Positions 16,417-47,667 of a DNA stretch of 64,000 nt are shown in pieces (the stretch's first letter is position 1; the number at the start of each line of letters is the position of its first letter). The DNA comes from an uncultured Gammaproteobacteria bacterium (lineage in GTDB: Bacteria; Patescibacteriota; Microgenomatia; Daviesbacterales; UBA10151). A program made the position numbers and the translations under genes. Under the pieces are notes generated by a model that saw only the letters and a program-made list of their open reading frames with translations, was not told where the DNA came from and did no database searches. The stretch covers positions 321,520-385,519 of the forward strand of contig CAZCNP010000001.1 in NCBI GenBank assembly GCA_964500725.1, written 5' to 3'.

Positions 16417-19400
16417 ATGTTAAAAGTTAATTCGTCCAAAAAATCACTTGTTAAAATTGCCCAAGCCTCCAAGTTATTAGGCGTCCACAAAGATACTTTA
16501 AGAAGATGGGAAAAAGCTGGCAAAATTAAAGTAGTCCGAGACCAAAAAGGAGACAGGCTTTATGATGTTTCTAAACTAATTAACTCAGCTCCTGCTTCTC
16601 AAACCTCCAAGGTGCCTACAACTGAGCAGCTGTTAAAGTCAGCTTCCCAACACGCTCAACAATCCACCTTACAACCTCAGCTACCAGCTTTAGATTACTC
16701 TGCTTTGTTAGATCAAACTATATCAAAGGATAACAAGCAAACAGGCAGAAGGTTTTATTTTATGGCTGCAGGCTTCTTCCTGCTCTTAGTGCTGATAGGC
16801 TTAGGTTATATTAGAGTTTTATCTACTCAATCCAAACCACAAATAATTACTTCTTTGGAAAACAAGATACTGGCAGCTATCACCTCTCAACCTTTAGTTA
16901 AGATAAATGCTGATGTCAAAGTAAGAGGGTCATTATCTGTATCAAACGATATCAATGGGCTGGCGATTGCCACTGATTCAGCAGGCTTTACCTTAACTTC
17001 TGAAAATGGCAAATTAACTGTGGTTGGCGATGCCTTGTTAAACCAAGACTTATCTTCCAGCGGCTCCCCTACTTTTTCTTCTCTAAATTTATCCTCAACC
17101 AGCAATCAGCTAGTCTTTCAATCAGGCGGACCAGCAGGCACCTTAACCTGGACTCCAACTGCTGCAAGAACTATTACCCTGCCAGACACCACTACTACTT
17201 TAGTTGGAAAAGATACCACCGATACTTTTACTAACAAATCCATTTCTGGGTCTTCTAACACTTTTACCAATATCCCCAACTCTGCTCTAACAAATAAAAA
17301 AATAACTGTTACAGCTGGAACTAATTTAACCGGCGGAGGAGATGTAGAACTTGGTTCATCAATTACTTTGAGTTTAAAAGAATCCCCTACTTTCTCCGGT
17401 GTAGTCTTACTTTCTGATGGCACAGCTGCTGCCCCAGGCTTAGCTTTCAGCAATGATACTAATACAGGTTTATATAGAATTGGTACAGATAAAATTGCCC
17501 TGATCACAGGAGGATTAGCTACCTCAGGGATTACCATTGATTCTTCTGGCAATTTAGGAATAGCCAATAATTCTCCAGCATATAAATTAGATGTAACAGG
17601 CACTGCCAATATTACCAGCAATACTACTATTGGTGGAACTCTGGGAGTAACAGGTATCTCTACTTTTTCATCAACTATGGGGGTGTCGTCAGGATTATCT
17701 GTAGGTAGTACCTATTCTTCTCTGTCACCACCAACCAGCGGTGCCATTATAGAAGGAAATGTCGGTATCGGAACCAGCGCCCCTGGTTCTTTTGCGTTAA
17801 ATGTAAGCGGCAATACTTACCTTAACGGGAGGCTAGAAACTTCAGGTAATGTTGGTATAGCTAATTCTGCTCCATCTTTTACTTTGGATGTAGTAGGTAC
17901 TGGCAGATTTTCTTCTTTACTTAATGTCTTAGGTAATATAGGTATTGGTACCTCTGGTGCAGCAGGATCAGCCCTGCAGGTTAATGGTGGAGGATTATTT
18001 GGCTGGGGAACAACTTCTACTGCTTTATCTTCTGGAGCTATCTTAGGAGTTAATGGAAATGTAGGAGTTGGGACTACTTCCCCTCTGGCTAACCTGCATG
18101 TTGTTGGACAATGTGTTGTTGGGGAAACAAAACTTAAAAGAAGAAGGAGAAAGAAGGGCAAAAATGGTGAGTGGTCAGATGAATATGAAGATGTAGAGAT
18201 TAAGGATATCAAGGAAGGGGATGAGATACTAACACTTGATGAAAGTACCGGCAGATTTGTACCTGCTAAAGTTAACGCCCTCAAAGATATGGGGATCAAA
18301 GAAATCTTTGAGTTGACCACTGCTACCGGAAAAACCATCAGGACCACCGGCAACCATCCCTACCTGGCACTTGGCGTAGAACACCTAGCCCTCACTAGTC
18401 ATGATTCGGCATCAGGTGTTACCGGTGCTTCCTTGCTCAACTCTACCATTTTATCTCTCACAAGAGGGAACAAAGACCACCGGATCGCCGTCTTTATCGA
18501 TGCGGCAAACCTTGAAAAATCCGTTGAGAAAATAGGCTTCAAAGTCCACTATAAAAACCTTAAACGCCTAATTGCTTCTTTAGGTTCTCTTGACTATATT
18601 GGTTATTTTACAGTAGCTACTTCTTCAGAACAGAATGTGACTCTTCGCCAGTCTCTGCTGCGCTTTGGTTATAACGTGGTTACCAAACCTCTAAAACTTA
18701 TTAAAACCGCCAAAGGCCTGAAACCCAAGGCTGATGTTGATGTAGAGATTACCACCGAAGTAATGGAACGCAAAGATGACTTTGATCTGATGATTCTCTT
18801 TTCAGGAGACAGCGATTTTTACTATCCAATTAAGCTCTTACAAGAAAAGTATGGAAAGAAAGTAATAGTTATCTCTACCAGATACAGTGTCTCCAGGGAA
18901 CTACTCAAAGTTGCTGACCGTTACATTGATATTGCCAAGCTTAAAGGGGAAATTGCCAGAGGGCAAAAAGAAAGCCCGTCTTTTGCAACGGGCGACTCAT
19001 CTTTCGACGAGAGCAATCTTACGACTGCACTTCAAACTATATCAGATATCCTGCCTTTTGTCAAGAATTTGGGCAAATGGACTAAGGTGTCAGGGCTAAA
19101 GACCGGCCAGATGATAGCTGCAGTAGGGAAAGACAACCAACCTCAGTTTGAAAAAATTGCCTCTATTAAGAAGGTTAAACGCGAGCAGGTCTTTGATATA
19201 GAAGTAGAAGGCACCCATAACTTTGTAGGCAATGATATAGTAGCTCATAATACTTTTATTACAGGTAATGTTGGGATTGGGGCTGCTTTTACCACCTCAG
19301 GTATAGTTACCCCCACTAATGGTTTAGCTGTCCAGGGTAATGTAGGTATAGGAACTTCTACCACCAATGCTGCCTTAACAGTAATAGGTGGGATAACAAC

Positions 19401-22400
19401 TACTGGCAATGTTGGTATTTCAAACTCTGCCCCATCATTTACTTTGGATGTAGTAGGCACTGGCAGATTTTCTTCTGATCTAACTGTTTCTGGAACTACC
19501 TTCTCTGCCTCATCAGCTGCTGGATCATTTGATTCCTTAACAGTAGGAGGAGGTTATGGATCAACAGGAGTATCAATCTCCAATGCTGGAGTAATCCAGG
19601 CTAATGGAGCTTTAACTGCTGATGGACTGATTACTGGTTCAACAGGTTTAACTATTACTGGAGGTGTAGTTTCTTTGAATGCTTCCTCAAATAATGCTGT
19701 CAATATAAACACAGGATCATCTACAGGTGCTTTAACATTAGGAGGAGGATCTGGAACTGTGGAAGTGGCTTCCACCAGCTGGGATATTTCTACTTTAGGA
19801 GCTATCTCTGGTGTCACTGGTATTACTACCTCAGGAGGATATACCCAATCTGGTACTTCCGAGAACCTCTTTACTGGTAATGTGGGTATAGGAGTATCTG
19901 CTACAGGAGCTAAACTTTCTTTAAATGGCGGAGCATATATCTGGCCAATTACAACTAATATTGCTGCTCCTAATAACGGATTAGCTGTTTATGGTAGAGT
20001 GGGCATTGGTACTACCTCCCCCGCAACCAATCTCCACTTGATTGATACTTCTGGCAACACTGAGATAGCCAGGTTTACCTCCACGACCAACTCTAAGGAC
20101 TCCTATGTTCAGTTCAATACTACTTCTTCCACTTCTTCTATGGGATTGCAACTTTCTAGCACTGCTGCTAACTCAGTAGGTATGAGAATTGATGGCTCAG
20201 GAAACTTATCTTTCCATACAGGTGCAGCCAGCAGCTCAGTTATGGCTAATAATAATAAAAAGATGACTATTGATACCAATGGGAATGTGGGTATAGGCAG
20301 CAGTGCCAGCAATGGTATTAGCGCAATTCAACTTTTCCAGGTTAATGGAACCTCCTCCTCCCCATTTGTAGTTACTTCAGCTGGTAATGTTGGTATAGCT
20401 AATTCTGCCCCATCTTTTACTTTGGATGTAGTAGGTACTGGCAGGTTTTCTTCTTTACTGAATGTTTTAGGAAATGTGGGGATAGGAACATCAGGAGTAG
20501 CAGGATCAGCCCTGCAGGTTAATGGTGGAGGATTATTTGGCTGGGGAACAACTTCTACTGCTTTATCTTCTGGAGCTATCTTAGGAGTTAATGGAAATGT
20601 AGGAGTTGGGACTACTTCCCCTCTGGCTAACCTGCATGTTGTTGGACAATGTGTTGTTGGGGAAACAAAACTGAAAAGAAGAAGGAGGAAAAAAGGCAAA
20701 AATGGCAAGTGGATTGATGAATGGGAAGAGGTGGAAATCAAGGATATTAAAGAAGGCGATGAGATACTTTCCTTAAACGAGAGTACTGGTGAGTTTATTC
20801 CCAGAAAAGTTAAGGGGCTTTTGGGTATGGGAATGCAGGAGGTGTATGAAATCTTAACCGAAGAAGGTAAAACCATCCAAACCACCAAAAACCATCCTTA
20901 CCTGGTAGACCTCTCTGAAACAGCAGGTACAGCGCTTCATTTTATTCAAAAAGCCACTTTTGAATATAGCGAGAGATTAGGAAAAGAGTTTTATATTGAT
21001 CATCTTGCAGGCAAGAAAATAAAATCAAAAGCATTAAATGACACTATCAACTTTACTCATACAGGCTGGAACCACTTTACAGAAAAAAGCAGATCAATCA
21101 ATGAATTGATTACCAGATTTTTTGCTCTTCCCTATGCTATTACAGTTCTATCTCAAGCCAGCAAAGTAAAAATTCATGAGGAAAGAAAGAAACCAGATAT
21201 GGTAGTGGAATACTGGATTTTTGAAGAAATTATCGAGTATGCGTTAATCCGGGTAGTAATTTCTGCTGTGAATCATGGCCCTAAGTTTTTCTTGTCTTGT
21301 TCCTGGCTGGGGACACAGGCAGAAGGAGGAATTTTAGCCAACAAAAAAGAGCTGTCTCTCTCGCAGGCAGTTACTCCTGGTCGACGTCGGGAACTGGTTA
21401 TCCCTCAGCTCTTTACTAAGCTGTTTATACCAAAAAATGTCAAAAATGTCAAGTGGGTTGAGGTTAGAAACTTAACAGTTGGGGCTAGTATCGCCACTAT
21501 TTCAGGTTGGGAAAAGATAGTTTCCATCAAAAATATGGGTAGAAAATCTACTTTTGATATAGAGGTAGCAGGGACTCATAATTTTCTAGGCAATAATATA
21601 GTTGCCCATAATACTTTCATTACAGGTAATGTTGGTATAGGAGCTGCTTTTACCACCTCAGGTATAGTTACCCCTGCTGATGGTTTAGCAGTCCAGGGCA
21701 ATGTAGGTATAGGGACAACTACTACCAATGCTGCTTTAACAGTGATAGGAGGAATAACCAGTACTGGTAATGTGGGTATTGCTAACTCTGCTCCATCATA
21801 TACTTTGGATGTAATAGGTACTGGCAGATTCTCTTCTACTCTGCTAGCTAATACCTTCTCCTCCTCAGAGGTAACCATCACTGGTGGAACCATCAATAAC
21901 ACCAGTATTGGAGCAACTGTAACCTCAACTGGCGCTTTTACTACTCTTTCTGCCTCTGGAGCTTTGGCTGCCAATGGTGGGATTACCTTTGATAATGCTA
22001 CTGATACATTAGGAGCTTTTACTGCTGCTGGAACTATCAATATGAATGGCAATATTATTACCAATATAGGGGCAACAGATACCAGCTTTGCCACCACTGG
22101 AGCCTTAGCCATTACCTTAGATGGAGCTGATGCCAGTGGCGCTCTCTCTGTTTCCAATGCCTCTCAAACCTCAGATATCTTTGTGGCCAAAGATAACACT
22201 ACTGCTGTGTTTACCATTAAAGATGGAGGCAATGTTGGGATAGGCTTTACCTCTCCTTCAGCTTTGCTTCATCTCAGACAAACAGGATCAGGTAATGCTT
22301 TCTATGTAGAAGATCAGGCAGATGATACTTCTTCTCCTTTTGTGATCAATGCTGATGGTAATGTTGGTATAGCTAACTCTGCTCCATCATATACCTTGGA

Positions 22401-25400
22401 TGTAGTAGGAACTGGAAGAATATCTTCTGATCTGGTAGTAAATGGCACTACTTTCTCTGCCTCATCAGCTGCTGGATCATTTGATTCCTTAACAGTAGGA
22501 GGAGGTTATGGATCAACAGGAGTATCAATCTCCAATGCTGGAGTAATCCAGGCTAATGGAGCTTTAACTGCTGATGGACTGATTACTGGTTCAACAGGTT
22601 TAACTATTACTGGAGGTGTAGTTTCTTTGAATGCTTCCTCAAATAATGCTGTCAATATAAACACAGGATCATCTACAGGTGCTTTAACATTAGGAGGAGG
22701 ATCTGGAACTGTGGAAGTGGCTTCCACCAGCTGGGATATTTCTACTTTAGGAGCTATCTCTGGTGTCACTGGTATTACTACCTCAGGAGGATATACCCAA
22801 TCTGGTACTTCCGAGAACCTCTTTACTGGTAATGTGGGTATAGGAGTATCTGCTACAGGAGCTAAACTAGCCATTAATGGTGGAGCATATATCTGGCCTA
22901 CTACCACAGCTATCTCTGCTCCCAATGATGGGCTGGCTGTATATGGTAATGTTGGTATAGGAACTACTACACCTTTAGCTAACTTACATGTTGTAGGACA
23001 ATGTGTAACTGGAGATACCAGACTGAGAAGAAGGAAGAAAAAGAAGAATGGTGAGTGGTCAGATGAATATGAAGATATAGAGATTAAAGATATCCAAGCA
23101 GGAGACCAGATACTGTCCTTAAATGAAAAGACAGGGCAATTTGAACCTCACACTGTTCTCGCCCTAAAAGATATGGGAATCCACCAAACTTTTGAGTTGA
23201 TTACTGCCTCCAGGAAATCAATCAGAACAACAGCTAATCATCCATACCTTATTAAACAACAAAAAACCCGCCTTTCAGCGAGTTCTTTGACTGAGTTTAA
23301 TGCTGATGCACTATACTCGGGTCTGAGTATCAATACTCTACCACAAAATACCAATAATGTCAAGTCTATGACTGCACGAAGTGGAACTAATGTGGACCTG
23401 ACGGGAATTGAACCCGCAAACCCAGATTTCTCAGACCCGAGCGTACACCAGTACCAGGCCCACATAAAATTATTATCTCATAAATGGATTAAAGTTTCAG
23501 GGCTTAAACCAGGCATGGAAATAGCTACTATTAATGGATGGGAAAAAATAGCAGCTATTAAAAAATTTGCCAGAGAACAGGTTTTTGATATAGAAGTTGA
23601 AGGAACACATAACTTTGTAGGCAATGATATAGTTGCCCATAATACTTTTATTACAGGTAATGTTGGGATTGGGGCTGCTTTTACCACCTCAGGTATAGTT
23701 ACCCCCACTAATGGATTAGCAGTCCAGGGTAATGTTGGTATTGGGACAACTACTACTACTAATGCCTTAACTGTTGCAGGTAATGTTAATACTACTGGTA
23801 ATTTAGGAGTTGGAACATCAGCTACAGGAGGATATAACTTAACAGTACAGGGTACTACCAGTATTACTGGAGCTGCCACTTTTGGATCTACTGGTACCTT
23901 TGCCTCTACCTTAACAGCTTCCAATGGCTTAACTTTAACAACTGGAGCTTTAAATCTAACCTCTACCTCAGGACAGGCTAATCTAGCTCTAACCAATAAC
24001 ACCAACACCTTCACTGTTAATGGATTATTTGGGATAGACACTACCAATAACAGAGTTGGTATTGGAACCACTGCCCCCTCTGCAGCAAGGCTTGAAGTTA
24101 TTGGAGCAGGATCCGTGACAGGACGCACCTTCTGGGTTACTGGATCAAATCTTTCCTCAGGCCTGGCAGTACTGGATAATGGTAACGTGGGTATTGGTAT
24201 TAGTGGACCAACTGCCAGTTTGGATATTGTGGGAACCTCATATACTACTGCCTTAGATCAATCTCAAACAAGTACTAATGGATTTTATAGCTCCAGTATA
24301 CAAGCGCAATCTTTCACCCCTTCTGTTACCGGCCCTTTCATGTATGCTGATATAAAAATCCAATCAGGAGGAGGAGCTCCAGGCAATACCGCTCTTACCC
24401 TCCGCTCAGGAGAAGATGTTTCAGGTACAGTTTTGGCTACTTCAACCAGTGTTGCCAGTTTAGGCAGTGGTTGGTATCGGATTACTTTTGACAATACCCC
24501 TACTTTAACTGCCGGACAGCAATACACCATCCGCTATGATAGAACAAGTACAAACGACTGGGGAATACAAGGTGCTAATCCCTATTCTGGAGGAAGATTC
24601 TATGGCTTAGGAGCTTGGAAAACCGATGATGGTGCCTTTAAAACTTATGTCTATACAACAGATACTACACTGGCAGATGCAGTTAAAATGGCTAATAATT
24701 ACACCTCGGCAAACAGCGGGGCTGTTTTAAACATTACCACAGCTGGAATAGCTGGAAGCTATGCCTTAAGAGTTAACGATGACGGTACATTTACCGATAC
24801 CTCCCCCTTTGTTATTGATACTACTGGTAATGTTGGTATAGCTAACTCTGCTCCATCATATACCTTGGATGTAGTAGGAACTGGAAGAATATCTTCTGAT
24901 CTGGTAGTAAATGGCACTACTTTCTCTGCCTCATCAGCTGCTGGATCATTTGATTCCTTAACAGTAGGAGGAGGTTATGGATCAACAGGAGTATCAATCT
25001 CCAATGCTGGAGTAATCCAGGCTAATGGAGCTTTAACTGCTGATGGACTGATTACTGGTTCAACAGGTTTAACTATTACTGGAGGTGTAGTTTCTTTGAA
25101 TGCTTCCTCAAATAATGCTGTCAATATAAACACAGGATCATCTACAGGTGCTTTAACATTAGGAGGAGGATCTGGAACTGTGGAAGTGGCTTCCACCAGC
25201 TGGGATATTTCTACTTTAGGAGCTATCTCTGGTGTGACTACTTTGAATATGTCAGGCGCCATCACTGCTGCTACTGCCTCCAATACCATCAATGGTTTAA
25301 TTATTAACTCTGGAGCATTATCTGGTGTCACTGGTATTACTACCTCAGGAGGATATACCCAATCTGGTACTTCCGAGAACCTCTTTACTGGTAATGTGGG

Positions 25401-28400
25401 TATAGGAGTATCTGCTACAGGAGCTAAACTTTCTTTAAATGGCGGAGCATATATCTGGCCAATTACAACTAATATTGCTGCTCCTGATAATGGCTTGGCT
25501 GTATATGGCAATGTGGGTATTGGTACTACTACTACCAATGCTGCTTTAACAGTGATAGGAGGAATAACCAGTACTGGTAATGTGGGTATTGCTAACTCTG
25601 CTCCATCATATACTTTGGATGTAATAGGTACTGGCAGATTCTCTTCTACTCTGCTAGCTAATACCTTCTCATCATCAGATGTAACAATCACAGGAGGAAC
25701 TATTAATGACACTACTATTGGAGCAACTATTACCTCAACTGGAGCTTTTACCACTTTAACTTCATCAGGTAATACCACCTTGGGTACAGGAGCATCATCT
25801 GTCAATACCATTGGTTCAACCACTACTCCAGGAACTCTAACCCTGCATGGAGCCACTACTTTGGACAATACCTTCACTGTTTCAGGAGCCAATCTCACTT
25901 CTTTGGGTGGGAACTTATCTTTTACTGGCACTGCTCCATCTTTAACTTCTGGATCATCAGTACTAGGAATATTTGCTGGAGGTAATGTAGGAATTGGGAC
26001 TACTTCTGCCATGGCCTCCTCTTTTAATGTTAATGGCAATCAGGTTATTGGTTCATCTTTCATTGGAGGTGCTGCCCCCACTAATGGATTAGCAGTCCAG
26101 GGTAATGTTGGTATTGGGACAACTACTACTACTAATGCCTTAACTGTTGCAGGTAATGTTAATACTACTGGTAATTTAGGAGTTGGAACATCAGCTACAG
26201 GAGGATATAACTTAACAGTACAGGGTACTACCAGTATTACTGGAGCTGCCACTTTTGGATCTACTGGTACCTTTGCCTCTACCTTAACAGCTTCCAATGG
26301 CTTAACTTTAACAACTGGAGCTTTAAATCTAACCTCTACCTCAGGACAGGCTAATCTAGCTCTAACCAATAACACCAACACCTTCACTGTTAATGGATTA
26401 TTTGGGATAGACACTACCAATAACAGAGTTGGTATTGGAACCACTGCCCCCTCTGCAGCAAGGCTTGAAGTTATTGGAGCAGGATCCGTGACAGGACGCA
26501 CCTTCTGGGTTACTGGATCAAATCTTTCCTCAGGCCTGGCAGTACTGGATAATGGTAACGTGGGTATTGGTATTAGTGGACCAACTGCCAGTTTGGATAT
26601 TGTGGGAACCTCATATACTACTGCCTTAGATCAATCTCAAACAAGTACTAATGGATTTTATAGCTCCAGTATACAAGCGCAATCTTTCACCCCTTCTGTT
26701 ACCGGCCCTTTCATGTATGCTGATATAAAAATCCAATCAGGAGGAGGAGCTCCAGGCAATACCGCTCTTACCCTCCGCTCAGGAGAAGATGTTTCAGGTA
26801 CAGTTTTGGCTACTTCAACCAGTGTTGCCAGTTTAGGCAGTGGTTGGTATCGGATTACTTTTGACAATACCCCTACTTTAACTGCCGGACAGCAATACAC
26901 CATCCGCTATGATAGAACAAGTACAAACGACTGGGGAATACAAGGTGCTAATCCCTATTCTGGAGGAAGATTCTATGGCTTAGGAGCTTGGAAAACCGAT
27001 GATGGTGCCTTTAAAACTTATGTCTATACAACAGATACTACACTGGCAGATGCAGTTAAAATGGCTAATAATTACACCTCGGCAAACAGCGGGGCTGTTT
27101 TAAACATTACCACAGCTGGAATAGCTGGAAGCTATGCCTTAAGAGTTAACGATGACGGTACATTTACCGATACCTCCCCCTTTGTTATTGATACTACTGG
27201 TAATGTTGGTATAGCTAACTCTGCTCCATCATATACCTTGGATGTAGTAGGAACTGGAAGAATATCTTCTAATCTAACAATAGGTGGATCATTAACTTCT
27301 ACTGGTAACCTACTTCCTTCAGCTGATGATACTTATGATTTAGGTTCTTCTTCTGCCAGATGGCAAGATCTCTATGTTGGCCCCACATCCTTAAATCTAG
27401 TTTGTACTGCAGGAGAATGTGGTACAGCCAGAACTTGGAATATTGGTGTTCAGGAATCTTCTGGAGTAGCAGCTGCCCAAGGTAATTTAAGGATTGGGCT
27501 TTCTTCCAGTAGAGACTTTCTCAATATTAACACCTCTGGAAATTTAGGAATTGGGACCAGTAATCCAGGAAACCTTTTGACTGTTTCAGGAGGCAATATT
27601 GAAATTTCCAGCGCTTCTCCACAGTTGATTTGGACAGACACCACAGCTGGTCAGGATGCTTTTGGAGCTATAGCCAACAGCGATTACTTAGAATTTATGT
27701 CCGGAGGCACCAGAAATATTTTAGTCTTGGCTGGTGCAACCCACGCAAATGCAGGTAATGTGGGGATTGGAACAGCAACTCCTGCCTTTAAACTGGATGT
27801 TAATGGTGGCATCAATTCAGGTACATCTGCTGGATATTCTGTTGGATCGTGGCTTGGTATGTCTTATGCAGCAAATGGAGCAAGTTATAACTTAAACTTA
27901 GGTGGTATTAATGCCTCTACCTGGGTGGGACTAGGTCTTTTCACTTCTGGCACAGAAAAGGTCAGAATCGATACAAATGGCGCACTATATTCAGGCAATA
28001 TTGGTACCTCTATTGCTAATGCTAATTTATTTGTCTCAGGGGCTACCTCTGGAAATGTTGGTATCGGCACTACAACTCCAAATACCAGACTGGATGTTAT
28101 AGGTAATGGGACTTATGCTGCTGATTTCATGAATGGAAGTGTGGGAATTGGAACTAGCAGCCCTCAAGCTACCCTTCATGTAGCTTCTGCCTTTACTGCA
28201 GTTTCAGATACTGGCAGCACTGGTGGTAACTTAATTATTCAAGGAACTGATACTACCAGGGATCCAACTCATGGGGCTGCTTTAAGCTTCTATCTTCCAG
28301 CTACTACAGCAGGAGGAAATCCTTATGTTCAAGCCAGAATTATAGGAGCACCAGATAATAGTTCTAATAATAATACTTCTGGAAGATTAATTTTCCAGAC

Positions 28401-31400
28401 TAGAAATAATACCAGCGCCTCTTTCAATAATGCCATGATGATAGATTCAAATGGAAATGTTGGCATTGGCACAACTGGGCCTAATGCTAAACTGGATGTG
28501 ATTGGTGGAATCAGGGTTACTAATACGAGCAGCACCAATGCTCTTGTGTTTGGTCTTGCAAATAGCAATCATTACCTCAAGCTCTACGCAGATACAGACA
28601 CTGGTATCAGCTACATTAAGAACTTATCTAACTATGATATTAGACTGGGACATGCAAGCAGTGATGATGTAATAATCAACTCTGCTGGTAATGTAGGTAT
28701 AGCAAACTCTGCTCCAAGTTATACCCTGGATGTTATAGGTACAGGCAGATTCTCTTCTGACCTTACTGTTGGAGGAAACTTAACTGTCTCTGGCACTACT
28801 TTTTCTGCCTCAGGAGCTGCAGGATCTTTTGATTCTTTAACAGTTGGTGGAGGTTATGGATCAACTGGAGTAACTATTTCCAATGCTGGGGTAATCCAAG
28901 CCAATGGGACTTTAACTGTTGATTCTACCTCTACTTTAACAGGAGCTGTCAGTATTGGAGCTTCCAATGCTGCTTTAACATTTACTGGTACTACTCCATC
29001 AATCACTTCTGGTTCCTCTGTCTTTGGAATCTTTGCTGGGGGGAATGTGGGAATAGGGACCACCTCTACCATGGGGTCAACTTTGAATGTTTCAGGTAAT
29101 CAGGTTATTGGTTCATCTTTCATTGGTGGAGCTGCTCCACAAAATGGATTAGGGATTCAGGGTAATGTTGGTATAGGCACTACTACTGCTACCTCTTATA
29201 ATCTTCAAGTTGTAGGGACTATTGGTTCAACCAGTGGTATTACTATAGATGCTGGAGCAGGCAGCTCTAATGCAACTCTTACTCTCGCAGGAAGAAATTC
29301 TGGGACAGCCCATTCTGCTTCTGTTTTCTCCAATTTTAACGGAGGCCTTAATCTAAAACCAGCCACAACTGGCAGTGATATTAATGTCTATCTTTGGAAT
29401 AATGCCACAGCTTCTACCTCCAATACCATGCCTTTAAACTTTGATTTAAATGCTACCACAGATGGTAAAACTACTTTTGCTCAAATCATGGGTCTTTCTA
29501 CTGATATTACCTCGGGAGCTGCCTCTGGAGCTTTATCTTTCTACACCAAAAATACTGGATCCTTGAAGGAAAGAATGAGGATAGATCTAAACGGTAACGT
29601 TGGTATTGGTACTTCTGCTCCATTTACTGCATTAACAGGAGCCTTCCAAGTAGCACCAGTTTCTGCCCCTGCTGCTTTCTTTGTAGGAAGTACAGGTAAT
29701 GTTGGGATAGGGACTACTGCCCCTACTAACAACTTATCAGTTATAGGCAATGTTAATACCACTGGTAATTTGGGAGTAGGGACATCTGCCACAGGTGGAT
29801 ATAACCTAACAGTAAATGGAACTGCTAGAATCTCAGGAAATATAGGTATAGGTGGTACTGCTACCTTCAGTAATCCAACTATCTTTAACAATGGTATTAC
29901 CAATAATGGAGTCTTTTCTCAGACAGGACAATTCCTAGCAGGAGATGGATCAGCTGCAGCTCCTTCGTATTCCTTCACCAGTTCCACTGGAGCAGGCCTC
30001 TGGTCACCATCTTCTAACAATATTGCCCTAACTACTGGAACTCCTACTACAACTGGTACCATTAAAGGAATCTCTGTTGATTCCTCTGGTAATGTAGGAA
30101 TTGGGACTTCTAATCCAGCAGGGCTTTTGGACATTGTTAAATTAGGAAATGATAACCCAATCTATATAGATCGATATAGTACAAACAATGGCCATGTTCC
30201 CACAATCCAATTCCGCACCAGCCAACAAAACAGTCTAGGCAACACTGCCACCACTATTAGCAACATGTATGGAAGACTTGAATGGTATGGGAATGATGGT
30301 AACGGCTTCCAAAGGGCTGCCTATATTCAAGCACAGCAGGGTTCAAGTACTGCAACTGATGCTGACTTAACAATATCTACAGGTGCAAGCGGAACAATTT
30401 TCATGGAAGGGAGTTCTGGCAATGTTGGTATTAACAATGCTGCTCCTGTGGCTAAATTACATTTAACAGGAGCTGGGATTACCACTGGAGTTAACTTCCT
30501 CTCCACAGGAGCTGGTGGAGGTGGAGGTCTAGTAGGTATTTTAGATAATGGCAATGTTGGAATAGGGACAACTGCACCAGGACAGAAACTGGATGTGGTT
30601 GGTACTATTAAATTTGGTTCCGGGGGTTATTACTCTTTGGGCACAGATCCTACCCGACTGGAAATAAGAAATGCCGCCAACGATTCCATCGCTCTTTATA
30701 CGAACGGTACGCGCGGCTTACTTATGACTGGGTCTCAAAAAGTCACAGTTGGAGGAGATATTTCTGGTGGTAATAGTTTATTCAATGTTCAAGGTGGTAC
30801 AGCAATTGGGTCAAGTTATTACCTGGCGACAGCTCCTACCAACGGCCTATTAGTTGAAGGTAATGTTGGTATTGGTACCACCAGCCCGATCACTAAATTA
30901 GATGTTAGCGGTGGAGTTGGAGACACTTCATCTACTGATCCTCAATTCTCTCTTTCCAGATGGTCTTCAACTGGTAATAACGAAGTAGTCAAATTTAGAT
31001 TAATGGAGCAAGCTTCAGGTGGCACTAACTTTGGGGTATTTACCATCCAAACCAAGAGTACAGCCTCTGCAGCAGAAAGCGATAGTTACTACACTAATGC
31101 TTTCTCAATCACTGCAGCTGGAAATGTTGGTATTGGTACCACTGGACCAGCTGTTAAGCTTGATGTTGTTGGTGGAGGAAACTATGTTGACGGTTTGAGA
31201 TTAAGATATTCTGCCTTAACTAACGGATGGAACTTTGCTCAGGGGACTGGCGGACAACTTTATTTTGGTTATGGCTCTGCTGCTTCACCAACAACCATGA
31301 TGCTGATAGATACCAATGGCAATGTTGGTATTAATAATGCTGCTCCTGTGGCTAAACTTCATTTAACTGGAGCAGGAACAACTACTGGGGTTAATTTCCT

Positions 31401-44886: not shown

Positions 44887-44893
44887 GCTTAAG

Positions 44894-44966
44894 TATCCCT
44901 GGAGGGAATTGCACCCCCGACCAACCCCTTAGGACGGGGCTGCTCTATCTACTGAGCTACAGGGAC
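44894..44966 (-). tRNA. tRNA-Arg (anticodon CCT)
   Basis: Reverse complement GTCCCTG-TA-GCTC-AGTAGATA-GAGC-A-GCCCC-GTCCTAA-GGGGT-TGGTC-GGGGG-TGCAATT-CCCTC-CAGGGAT-A. Cloverleaf with G1-U72 and an atypical T-loop (G at position 55). Confidence 0.6.
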
Positions 44967-45011
44967 AATCATATGTATAATTTTATCACTAAAGAAGATA
45001 TAATTCGATCA

Positions 45012-45084
45012 CGGGACGTAGTTCATCGGCAGAACGCTACTTTCGGGAAGTAGAAGCAAGTGAGTTCAATTCTCCTCGTCCCGA
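45012..45084 (+). tRNA. tRNA-Pro (anticodon CGG)
   Basis: CGGGACG-TA-GTTC-ATCGGCA-GAAC-G-CTACT-TTCGGGA-AGTAG-AAGCAA-GTGAG-TTCAATT-CTCCT-CGTCCCG-A. Perfect acceptor, D and anticodon stems; G37; one mismatch in the T-stem. Confidence 0.6.
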
Positions 45085-45421
45085 CTATAGGTCTATATTA
45101 GCTTCAAAATAACTCTTGACATTTGGGTAATTTTCGGGTAATACTAAATGCCAGTCCTCTGTAAAGAATAGACAAGTCGAATTAATATGCGAAAACTTTC
45201 CTTGTCAAAATAAGTTTAAAAGAAGACTTAGTCAACGATCGTTCCGTAATTTTTGCTCCCAATCCTGTGCTGCAACTCTCAACAATAAATGTAGACAAAT
45301 TAATAAATACAGGATCAATAAACCTCCCTCTAAAACACTTCATACACAGAAACCTAATATTCCTCTTAAATATTGTCAGTATTGCGGAAATAGATGTTCA
45401 TTAAATCGCAATTATTGCTCG

Positions 45422-45823
45422 ATGAAATGCTGGGGAAAAGCTCATGAACTTTCACAAGAAATATTGCTTAAACAAATTAGGTTGTTGTCATTAAAATTAG
45501 GCAGATCGCCCACTAGGCGGGAGTGCAAATATCATACAACTTGCCAAAGACATTTTGGATCATGGAATAACGCTTTAATAGCAGCTGGCTTAACTCCACA
45601 TCGTTCCCTAAATCAACGTATGTATAAAAGACGTATCTGCATTGCTAGAGATGGCCATATTTGTAATTCAGTCTCGGAATTAATAATTGATAACTGGCTC
45701 CATAAACACAACATCACTCATCAAAAAGAAGCACCCTACCCTAAGGGAAAATTTGTTGCTGATTGGGCTATTGCTACAAATACTCTAGTTGAATATTTTA
45801 GTAAGGAATTGAGAATAACTTAA
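45422..45823 (+). pseudogene. Remnant of a zinc-ribbon plus Vsr/DUF559-like (PD-(D/E)xK) endonuclease gene, truncated at both ends
   Basis: The in-frame upstream sequence YPLKYCQYCGNRCSLNRNYCS has no start codon (stop at 45356). The core CNSVSELIIDNWLHKHNITHQKEAPYPKGKFVADWAIATNTLVEYF resembles the DUF559/Vsr motif. The C-terminus is cut by the overlapping recombinase gene. Confidence 0.45.
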
Positions 45824-47086
45824 AATAGCCTTCTTATTTAATTCCATCTCCTTCTTAATAGCTTCTAACTGGTCATCAGCTTCCTTTAGTTTCTTATCTA
45901 AACCCTTTAGATCAGCACTAAACACTCCTTTTATGTAGCTATCAGTCTCACTTCTTAATAAATCCTTTGTCTTCTCAATCTTGTTGTCTAAATTCCGCCT
46001 TATTTGTTGTAAGGACCTTCTTCTGCTCTCAAGCTCTAACTCCTTATCTCTAATTACATTCCTCATTTCATCCACATAGTGGCTGTAAACTGCTTTAGAG
46101 GTGAACTTATTATCCTTTAGGAACTCACAAACAAAATCAACTATTACATGGGCTCTAATTGACTTGCCATATAATTTACAGTCAGGATTATCACATCTGT
46201 AGTAAAAGTAATTAGTCAAACCTTTTTTATTTTGCTTCGGGGTTATACCTGCTATCATGTTCTCTTCACAATCCCCACAAATCACTGCTCCCCTCAGTAA
46301 ATCAGCCTGTATAGTGCCTTCTGCATTGGCTCTGAGCCGATTCTTGAATGCTCTTTCCATATTGGAGAATTTATTTATCTTTAAGAATTCGTCTACTGTG
46401 ACCATTGGCACAAAGTCGTAAATCTCAGTTAAGTCAACAAATTGCTCACCGTATTTGAGTACTCCTGTATAAAATGGATCCTTAAACATCTCCGAAATTC
46501 TACTTCTGCCCCATTTGTAGACTTCATGCTTATCTCCTGTTGAATCCACTGCTCTGGTGAAACCATTGTCATTGAGGTACTTCATAACTACTTCTTGGGT
46601 TATTCCATCTAACCTCATCTTCCAACCCGTTTTTAGAAGAGTAAAATTATCACCGTCTGGTCTTAGGAACTTATTAATATCTTTGTAATAGCCATATTTT
46701 GTTCTGCTTAGGTATTTTCCTTCTTCAATACTCCTTCTAATACCTCGTTTAACATTGTCACTTAATTGGTCTGAGTATTGTTTACTTAAAACGAAGGCTA
46801 TTCCTAAAAGCATTTTCCCAGCTGTATTATTTTGAAAGGTGAAACTAACAAAATGCAGATCCTTTATTATTTGTTTATCTAATAAATCAATAACTTCACC
46901 ATTTGAGCCTACCACCTGATTATCTGCCAAATTTTGTGCAGGTTGTTGATCCTGCTGGGATTGTTGACTATTGTTGGTATCTGTTGACTGGCTATTGTCT
47001 GACTGTTGAGGTTGAGAGTTATCACCTTGAGAAGCTAAACTTGAGGCTAAATCTGTTAAATTATCTTTCTGAATTTTGTCATCCAT
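45785..47086 (-). mobile_element. Large serine recombinase gene missing most of its N-terminal catalytic (resolvase) domain; replaced by S/Q-rich low complexity
   Basis: Only the end of the resolvase domain is present (DLHFVSF...GKMLLGIAFVLSKQYSDQLSDNVKRGIRRSIEEGKY). It is followed by the recombinase domain (YLSRTKYGYYKD), the zinc ribbon (CGDC...YYRCDNPDC) and a coiled-coil tail. The N-terminal 60 aa are SQGDNSQPQQSDNSQSTDTNNSQQSQQDQQ; no catalytic-Ser motif. Confidence 0.6.
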
Positions 47087-47172: not shown

Positions 47173-47667
47173 TTAGGGTCTCCCTCTTTTTTTGTACTCA
47201 ATTAAATATTTCAAACTTCCAAAATCAATATGCTCATCTCCTGCGATTTTCTTGATTTCTCTGGCAGTTCTTTTTGGAGAAGAAATTATAATGATCTTTT
47301 TCTTTTTAGAAATTAAATAAGTAAGTAGTGGAGCAAAATCCCCATCACCAGTTAACACAATCGCTCTTTTATATTCTTTTATTTTAAGAAGCATGTCCAT
47401 AGTCAAATCTACATCACAGTTTGCTTTAGTTCTTGCTCCATATCTTTTGATTTCCTTTACTCTTAAAATATATCCAAATTGCTCTAATTTTTTTAAGAAT
47501 TTCTCTTTCTTTTCACTCTTTGAGTCTCTACCATAATAAAAGAAGACTTTAGAAATCGAAAATTTATTTTTTAGATATTGAATTAGTTTCTCTTGATCTA
47601 TAAACCAACCTTCAGCTCTGGCACCATAAATAATATTAGAAGCATCTATAAAAGCATAAGTTTTCAT
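47173..47667 (-). CDS. Free-standing NYN-domain (LabA-like) protein, paralogue of the intein-embedded NYN domain
   Basis: MKTYAFIDASNIIYGAR...CDVDLTMDML...AIVLTGDGDFAPLL...IIIISS...GDEHIDF. Confidence 0.7.
   Translation of the reverse strand: MKTYAFIDASNIIYGARAEGWFIDQEKLIQYLKNKFSISKVFFYYGRDSKSEKKEKFLKKLEQFGYILRVKEIKRYGARTKANCDVDLTMDMLLKIKEYKRAIVLTGDGDFAPLLTYLISKKKKIIIISSPKRTAREIKKIAGDEHIDFGSLKYLIEYKKRGRP

Follow-up and report, generated by a model that had tools for sequence, protein, structure and literature searches.

A LabA-type NYN nuclease domain in the endonuclease position of an intein from a giant repeat protein, and a family of related inteins in Patescibacteria

The DNA examined is a window of 64,000 nucleotides (nt) of contig CAZCNP010000001.1 (assembly GCA_964500725.1) from an uncultured bacterium, and all nt positions given below are positions in this window. 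It contains a gene for a giant protein that is rich in GNVGIG repeats and is interrupted by three inteins, the first of which (intein 1) carries an NYN nuclease domain between its splicing lobes. The coordinates of the features are collected in Table 1. A scan of the window for inteins returned none beyond these three. All three are located at the identical site, ...TTxPLANLHVVGQ|C...VAHN|TFITGNVGIG..., where the vertical bars mark the junctions; for intein 1 these fall between 18111 and 18112 and between 19251 and 19252. The adjoining extein flanks are 93-100% identical at the nt level (over 240 nt upstream for inteins 1 and 2), and the identity decays inside the inteins.

The host protein starts with a MerR-type helix-turn-helix (HTH) domain (Pfam E 2.9e-11) and a single predicted membrane helix, continues over thousands of residues with GNVGIG-type repeats, and carries Peptidase_S74 (endosialidase/tail-fibre chaperone; Pfam E 2.3e-6) near its C-terminus. 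It is predicted to be a membrane-anchored surface protein. The combination of a cytoplasmic-type MerR HTH before a membrane helix with Peptidase_S74 is an odd pairing for a surface protein. Close orthologues of the repeat protein were not found with the spliced extein junction as protein query, which gave only 5 weak matches.

In intein 1, the Pfam NYN model PF01936 matched with E 1.2e-23 and 84.6 bits, far above the cut-off of 24.2, over profile positions 1-144 of 145. An earlier interpretation made from the letters alone (the sequence-only reading) had proposed this search and had placed an NYN domain at 18478..18933, which is correct to one codon. Its estimate of an insert of about 150 amino acids (aa) applies to the NYN domain (150 aa) and not to the segment between the splicing lobes, which measures about 230 aa and consists of the NYN domain and two linkers. 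The motifs that it quoted were all found, namely IAVFIDAANL (D130, N133), ADVDV with its DVDV core (D208, D210), and LFSGDSDF (D233, D235). Its statement that the insert is not LAGLIDADG, HNH or GIY-YIG also agrees with the Pfam results for intein 1, which contain no match to any of the three; only the NYN and the intein splicing domain were detected.

The catalytic residues are strongly conserved. Among 13 aligned NYN-inteins that are 35-66% identical to intein 1, F128, D130, N133, K192, K206, D210, G232, D233, D235 and L264 are invariant (13/13). All 61 intein-borne NYN domains compared retain D130, N133, K206, D210, G232, D233 and D235, with 25-40% identity elsewhere. A profile made from 19 intein-borne NYN domains matched VPA0982 (PDB 2QIP) over its full length (E 2.2e-27) with the active-site residues aligned. 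A careful alignment of the acidic residues, also proposed in the sequence-only reading, is in favor of the assignment. Among the PADLOC models for candidate defence systems, "LabA-like NYN family nuclease" also matched the insert, with E 4.9e-15. As judged from these comparisons, the endonuclease slot of intein 1 is filled by a LabA-type NYN (PIN-like, metal-dependent) nuclease with an intact active site, the activity of which is predicted.

The splicing parts are complete. Intein_splicing (PF14890) spans residues 23-380 of intein 1 (Pfam, E 5e-19). The block A nucleophile is Cys1 (Cys566 of the open reading frame (ORF), nt 18112) in CVVGETKL, and C1 is invariant across the family of related inteins described below. 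Block B contains the TxxH motif as T79-G-N-H82 in IRTTGNHPYL, with T78, T79 and H82 at least 90% conserved in the family. At the C-terminal end a THNF block and a terminal VAHN are present; the intein closes with ...DIEVEGTHNFVGNDIVAHN|T, thus with His-Asn followed by a +1 Thr, which was found in 86 of 86 family inteins. Weak PT-HINT Pfam matches were also seen in family inteins. The closest structure to the Hint fold of intein 1 is a true DnaB intein (34% identity). By sequence and structure intein 1 is classified as a canonical class-1 intein, splicing itself being predicted.

An AlphaFold2 model of intein 1, computed from a 51-sequence alignment, has a mean predicted local distance difference test (pLDDT) value of 87.5. 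It consists of a Hint lobe (residues 1-88 and 322-380) and a separate alpha/beta/alpha lobe (residues 105-281) with the PIN-like fold of NYN domains, joined by low-confidence linkers at 94-101 and 286-317. The NYN domain is thus modelled as a lobe of its own, apart from the Hint lobe, a point on which the sequence-only reading had suggested a structure prediction. The predicted template modelling score of the whole model is 0.55, because the orientation between the lobes is undefined. An Arg/Lys-rich beta-hairpin in the Hint-N lobe, KLKRRRRKKGKNGEW, forms strands 7-15 and 21-29 in the model with pLDDT >90. A corresponding hairpin is present at the same position in inteins 2 and 3 and throughout the family, mini-inteins included (consensus CVTGDTxLRRRRRxK), and may serve in nucleic-acid binding.

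Homing-endonuclease families are only a handful in number, and inteins have been described with LAGLIDADG and less often with HNH nucleases; further recognised homing-endonuclease families are PD-(D/E)xK, EDxHD and Vsr-like. The NYN domain of intein 1 occupies the homing-endonuclease position and belongs to no recognised homing-endonuclease family. Well-known endonuclease-bearing class-1 inteins are PI-SceI, PI-PfuI and the Mtu RecA intein, all of the LAGLIDADG type, and some others carry HNH. Like those of PI-SceI and PI-PfuI, the nuclease lobe of intein 1 splits the Hint domain at the same loop, and mini derivatives coexist with the full-length form; Cys1, TxxH, the terminal His-Asn and the +1 nucleophile are likewise common to class-1 inteins. 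In contrast to them, the nuclease is NYN/PIN-like, with putative DNA cleavage, and is outside the families listed in an intein review (HNH, His-Cys box, GIY-YIG and LAGLIDADG; PMC7765530), the host is not a conserved enzyme of replication or repair but a surface protein that is repetitive and evolves fast, and NYN-inteins occur in several copies per gene at a repeated motif. Surface proteins of this kind, and not conserved enzymes, seem to be where the intein family spreads.

The intein NYN is of the same domain size as LabA-like NYN proteins (PF01936/COG1432: VPA0982, MARF1 and the B. fragilis protein), but the known members either stand alone or are joined to RNA-binding modules (OST-HTH/LOTUS, RRM). 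A 2017 catalogue of the PIN superfamily (PMC5499597) does not mention inteins, Hint or homing and reports no NYN within a Hint domain, and no description of NYN in inteins was found in the open-access literature. The "new class of intein-associated nuclease" of the sequence-only reading is apt as a description, because the insert is outside the known intein endonuclease families and no paper was found that describes NYN inteins. What is new is the nuclease family within inteins; an intein with a nested nuclease is as such already known.

Two other Hint-containing systems are comparable. A-type bacterial intein-like (BIL) domains are located in the variable parts of bacterial proteins that are not conserved and are often secreted or at the surface, and a genome may contain several of them (PMC7765530). 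The NYN-inteins resemble them in their location in a variable region of a non-conserved surface protein and differ by the nested NYN and the constant +1 Thr, since A-type BIL domains lack a nested nuclease as well as conservation of the +1 nucleophile. The pretoxin-HINT domains of polymorphic toxin systems are similar in that giant secreted or surface-located proteins combine Hint with exchangeable effector modules. Their variable domain follows Hint on the C-terminal side and is released by cleavage, whereas here it is nested in a complete, splicing-competent-looking intein. An immunity gene for the NYN-intein is not evident.

Relatives of the intein are encoded in 173 stretches from GTDB species representatives (one genome per species), nearly all of them metagenome-assembled genomes of Patescibacteria, with Daviesbacteria, Giovannonibacteria, Zambryskibacteria, WWE3, Kaiserbacteria, Taylorbacteria and others as hosts. 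From the 79 loci that were kept (L001-L079), 83 complete inteins were parsed; NYN is present in 47 of the 83, and none contains a canonical homing endonuclease. LAGLIDADG, HNH and GIY-YIG are also absent from 37 NYN-less family members, window inteins 2 and 3 included. A search of 5.8 billion proteins revealed PF01936 within PF14890 in about twenty metagenomic proteins, which where named are mostly from Patescibacteria (one is labelled as Pacearchaeota) and are entered at NCBI as "NYN domain-containing protein, partial". HMMER produced 3934 matches at E<=1e-3 and 107 at E<=1e-30 over 1.84 billion cluster representatives, and in at least 40 of the top 150 50%-identity clusters NYN is joined to a Hint lobe in one matched stretch (hosts of 700-5600 aa). 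NYN-inteins form a sizeable family specific to the Patescibacteria (candidate phyla radiation, CPR). Several inteins at one site per gene are recurrent in the family, and diverged NYN-inteins share one gene in L004, L006 and L042. A viral origin of NYN-inteins was rejected, as the viral contigs of IMG/VR contain free-standing NYN genes only and no NYN-inteins.

The slots of the NYN-less members are occupied by DUF3800 in three cases and by a weak LPD3 match in one; the remainder are unannotated and include several recurrent clusters. The insert of window intein 2 is a 175-aa domain with a sub-threshold LPD3 match (E 3.8e-5) that is present in at least 6 other family inteins; its conserved motifs are GWxH, TRxFALP, EYW and GPKxF(L/Y)S, without conserved acidic residues. 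At least four recurrent insert families besides NYN occur in the GTDB loci (e.g. L055 6001-7047, L013 8449-9462 and L058 6001-7179). One insert family of 8 members has the motif VEIDQSNRIE...DIDVDVEYPG...SIGKSSPAH, and DUF3800, which a paper on the RNase H superfamily does not mention, accounts for 3 members. In L071 6001-7422 and L065 5728-7257 a further insertion separates splicing blocks F and G (...THNFV(A/G)GHY...FGGIVAHN), so that more than one loop can accept inserts in this family.

Segment identities of intein pairs indicate that the nuclease module and the splicing scaffold move independently. P0001 and P0013 have an N-extein identity of 100% (40 aa) and 94% identity in the Hint-N lobe, with 34% in the insert. 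For P0013 and P0014, the insertion sites of which differ, the values are 48% (N-extein), 78% (Hint-N lobe) and 99% (insert). Window intein 1 and P0001 are 36% identical in the N-extein, 67% in the Hint-N lobe, 71% in the insert and 81% in the NYN domain proper, so that in this pair NYN is more conserved than the scaffold (71-81% vs 67%). The DNA of the splicing lobes contains short segments common to inteins with different inserts.

In a neighbour-joining tree of 122 NYN domains, calculated without support values and from a biased sample of free-standing genes, at least four intein-borne clades are interleaved with free-standing ones. Because of this interleaving, intein-borne and free-standing NYN genes appear to exchange. 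The clade of intein 1 groups with free-standing P0021 and P0022 (46% identity), its closest free-standing relatives, and another intein-borne clade (P0018, L046, L006 and others) is the sister of the free-standing family to which a second NYN gene of the window, at 47173..47667, belongs. The C-terminal tails of free-standing relatives, e.g. KKQKISPFSETRGS in P0107, are similar to the segment behind the NYN domain of intein 1, RGQKESPSFATG, a similarity which suggests that whole NYN genes were captured by inteins.

The sequence-only reading had regarded gene 47173..47667 as clearly homologous to the insert and as its possible source. The homology holds at the family level (25% identity, E 6e-7), but the two are not closely related and belong to different clades. 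The gene has 2519 matches at E<=1e-8; the best 120 of these are 68-98% identical and 157-200 aa long, those named being from Roizmanbacteria or Patescibacteria. Its nearest intein-borne relatives are about 40% identical and form a different NYN-intein clade that is absent from the window. With 25% identity, a different clade, a large conserved family and closer relatives of the insert in P0021 and P0022, the gene is best classified as a family-level paralogue and not as the donor of the intein 1 insert.

The insertion site is uniform, with GNVGIGTTxPxxxLHVxG(Q)|...|T(Y/F)(I/L)xGNVGIG as its form in the repeat. The 86 family inteins are mostly preceded by Gly at -2 and by Gln (55) or His (19) at -1, and mostly followed by Tyr at +2 and Leu or Ile at +3. 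Searched as a degenerate DNA pattern, a junction that lacks the intein and has a Gln codon at -1 was found neither in 241 million metagenome records nor in the 655 kb of intein loci. With the -1 codon left free, 52 metagenomic loci (L139-L190) contain uninterrupted GNVGIGTTxPxQKLHV(V/E)G(N/D)TY(L/I)xGNVGIGT, in which the -1 residue is N (39), D (13), T (5), I (3), A (2) or S (1) and never Q or H. Since uninterrupted copies exist in these 52 loci, the insertion point of the inteins can be assigned exactly to the conserved core, LHVxG(N/D)|TY(I/L)xGNVGIG, of a repeat that is widespread. Conserved-core sites are the classical targets of homing elements. In the intein-bearing Patescibacteria loci about 3 good free cognate sites (L004 9652, L055 4084 and L068 4023) compare with 102 occupied N-junctions. 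Off-pathway cleavage is favoured by an acidic or amide residue at -1, and the difference between occupied (Q/H) and free (N/D) sites may be due to a splicing constraint or to target immunity guarding occupied sites.

The NYN domain is tentatively interpreted as the mobility nuclease of the intein, a functional analogue of a homing endonuclease with putative DNA cleavage; this is a possible reading whose likelihood falls somewhat short of even. The Hint lobes would splice the host protein and release an intein-NYN protein of about 43 kDa with its Arg-rich hairpin. The NYN domain would then nick or cut DNA, probably transiently single-stranded or structured, at unoccupied repeat cores LHVxG(N/D)|TY(I/L)xGNVGIG, and recombinational repair from an occupied copy would transfer the intein together with its immediate extein flanks to the new site. 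The nuclease gene would move in and out of the scaffold by swapping with free-standing NYN genes. The wider proposal, that NYN-inteins are unrecognised PIN-fold homing or recombination-triggering endonucleases whose cut at the GNVGIG core drives both intein spread and the rearrangement of CPR surface genes, is rather unlikely.

Interleaved clades, mosaic modules, mini derivatives at paralogous sites, several inteins per gene, homogenised flanks and a conserved-core target together make up the classic pattern of homing elements. The 93-100% identical extein flanks are consistent with co-conversion, and the lack of any other nuclease in so prolific a family supports a role in mobility. Catalytic conservation over deep divergence, together with several diverged NYN-inteins per gene, fits selection at the level of the element better than a function for the host.

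Several observations weigh against a mobility nuclease. To our knowledge, double-stranded DNA cleavage is known for no NYN, and no dedicated DNA-recognition domain was detected in the NYN-intein. The same slot also holds domains without a nuclease signature, such as that of intein 2. Multi-copy sites and mosaic modules could also have arisen from one ancient insertion if the repeat was later duplicated and subjected to gene conversion. The 52 loci with uninterrupted sites contain no family inteins and thus represent intein-free lineages with a different -1 residue, and no closely related pair of alleles with and without the intein was found. Every characterised PF01936 NYN is a single-stranded-RNA endoribonuclease: MARF1 is a Mn/Mg-dependent single-stranded-RNA nuclease (PMC6294520), and the CRISPR-associated NYN of B. 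fragilis is a Mn/Mg-dependent, sequence-nonspecific single-stranded-RNA endonuclease (bioRxiv 10.1101/2024.04.08.588522).

Because of this last point the main rival explanation is that the NYN domain is an RNase cargo. Splicing would free a single-stranded-RNA endoribonuclease without any role in mobility, acting for example in mRNA or tRNA turnover, in defence or as a toxin, or in nucleotide scavenging if splicing follows export, and the copies would have spread by repeat duplication and gene conversion. The PADLOC match, the membrane-anchored surface protein as host and the lack of a close allele pair are in line with such a cargo, as is the polymorphic slot (NYN subtypes, DUF3800, LPD3-like and unannotated domains), which resembles cassette-swapped effectors. 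It leaves unexplained the precise, invariant insertion point with its near-saturated cognate sites, the several diverged NYN-inteins in one gene (L004, L006, L042) and the wide retention of the intein in a variable, non-essential region; moreover, a non-specific RNase in the cytoplasm would have to be kept in check by immunity or some other control, for which no mechanism was seen. On balance, this explanation is on the unlikely side.

A nested selfish gene is also conceivable, in which mobile multi-copy NYN genes repeatedly invade the intein loop as a harbour and the nuclease spreads the NYN gene, not the intein. It would account for the interleaving of intein-borne and free-standing NYN in at least two clades, the tail motif common to intein 1 and free-standing proteins, the 99% identical NYN module in two scaffolds and sites, the differing NYNs in one scaffold at one site, and the multiple copies, variable gene contexts and phage-contig occurrence of free NYN genes. 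A mechanism by which NYN would target the intein loop is not known, and the free NYN family of the window, with the high conservation of its best 120 of 2519 relatives, looks more like a cellular gene than a fast parasite. This explanation, which we consider improbable, overlaps heavily with a mobility nuclease, because independent invasion is also assumed for the classical homing-endonuclease genes of inteins. An inactive relic, an assembly chimera or a chance match, for which only the fact that endonucleases of inteins are often decayed (as in the reduced intein 3 of the window) could be cited, is essentially excluded by the conservation data, given the Pfam score, a reading frame unbroken over 5984 aa, catalytic residues retained in every one of the 61 copies, a confident two-lobe model and an architecture that recurs in dozens of independent assemblies.

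If the NYN domain cuts DNA, it would add a further homing-endonuclease family, of interest as a scaffold for genome engineering; if it cuts RNA, the family would represent the first inteins built for the delivery of an RNase. The candidate target site in the repeat core makes the homing model directly testable. Bacteria, and CPR genomes in particular, are rich in LabA-like NYN proteins, the function of which is almost uncharacterised; the NYN-inteins provide a handle on this function and a concrete question.

Table 1. Features of the intein-bearing gene and of the free-standing NYN locus, with copies of the tRNA-like element in other intein loci
Feature	Position	Strand	Details
Host gene	16417..34371	+	single unbroken ORF, 5984 aa, rich in GNVGIG repeats; giant protein with three inteins
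MerR-type HTH	16417..16570	+	N-terminus of host protein
Intein 1	18112..19251	+	380 aa, Cys566 to Asn945 of ORF, then Thr (+1 codon 19252..19254)
Hint-N splicing lobe	18112..18375	+	residues 1-88
Arg/Lys-rich hairpin	18130..18198	+	in Hint-N lobe of intein 1
Linker 1 (Hint-N lobe to NYN)	18376..18480	+	residues 94-101 disordered, 105-117 helix (AlphaFold2)
NYN (LabA-like, PF01936) domain	18481..18933	+	intein residues 124-274
NYN active-site codons	D130 18499..18501; N133 18508..18510; D210 18739..18741; D233 18808..18810; D235 18814..18816	+	
Tail and linker 2	18934..19074	+	residues 275-321, mostly disordered; contains RGQKESPSFATG
Hint-C splicing lobe	19075..19251	+	residues 322-380, end = ...DIEVEGTHNFVGNDIVAHN
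Intein 2	20650..21612	+	321 aa; scaffold and insertion site as intein 1; slot with different unannotated domain
Intein 2 insert	20902..21426	+	175-aa domain
Intein 3	23002..23643	+	214 aa, same insertion site; mini-intein without NYN; antisense tRNA-like element in linker
tRNA-like structured element	23390..23461	-	antisense to intein 3 linker
Peptidase_S74	32464..32625	+	near C-terminus of host protein
Intein-less junction, candidate target			CATGTTGTTGGAAAY|ACTTTTATTACAGGTAATGTTGGG, Q or D variants
Intein-less junction, DNA level			...CCTCTGGCTAACCTGCATGTTGTTGGA-(CAA, AAY or GAY)-ACTTTTATTACAGGTAATGTTGGGATTGGG..., beside GNVGIG repeats
tRNA-Arg	44893..44966	-	near free-standing NYN gene
tRNA-Pro	45012..45085	+	near free-standing NYN gene
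ORF with homing-endonuclease-associated HNH_repeat	45422..45823	+	E 1e-14
Serine recombinase	45785..47086	-	without catalytic N-terminal part of resolvase domain; follows free-standing NYN gene
Free-standing NYN gene	47173..47667	-	164 aa, PF01936 E 4.2e-21
tRNA-like element copies	L060 3806-3886; L063 6514-6594; L068 4686-4766; L072 6388-6468		inside intein loci
tRNA-like element copies (2)	L077 997-1077; L045 5875-5955; L051 1398-1478; L064 2545-2625		
tRNA-like element copies (3)	L030 3081-3161; L009 1901-1981; L078 1290-1370		

The free-standing NYN gene of the window is adjoined by a mobile-element remnant (44893..47086). In another genome, two members of its family (L080 4001-4522 and 5400-5936) are arranged in tandem among small RHH_1 and DUF2283 genes, a neighbourhood that resembles toxin-antitoxin loci in its gene content.

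The linker of intein 3 contains, on the opposite strand, a genuine tRNA-like structure. The element matched the tRNA-like domain of tmRNA in Rfam (E 1.9e-6) and scored 69 bits with its own covariance model, and 20 of its 25 pairs covary across 9 copies. It is composed of an extended acceptor stem of about 12 bp, a reduced D arm, a T arm with GGGTTCRAWTCCC and, in addition, a conserved TTGNCA loop. A conserved G·U pair identifies the antisense strand as the selected one. A real tRNA gene was rejected, as ARAGORN made no call and the anticodon-like loop is non-canonical. A connection with NYN genes was likewise rejected, since the 350 kb that surround free-standing NYN genes gave 0 matches and most NYN-inteins are without the element. 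The covariance model detected 19 copies over the 655 kb of intein loci, all antisense and mostly in NYN-less mini-inteins.

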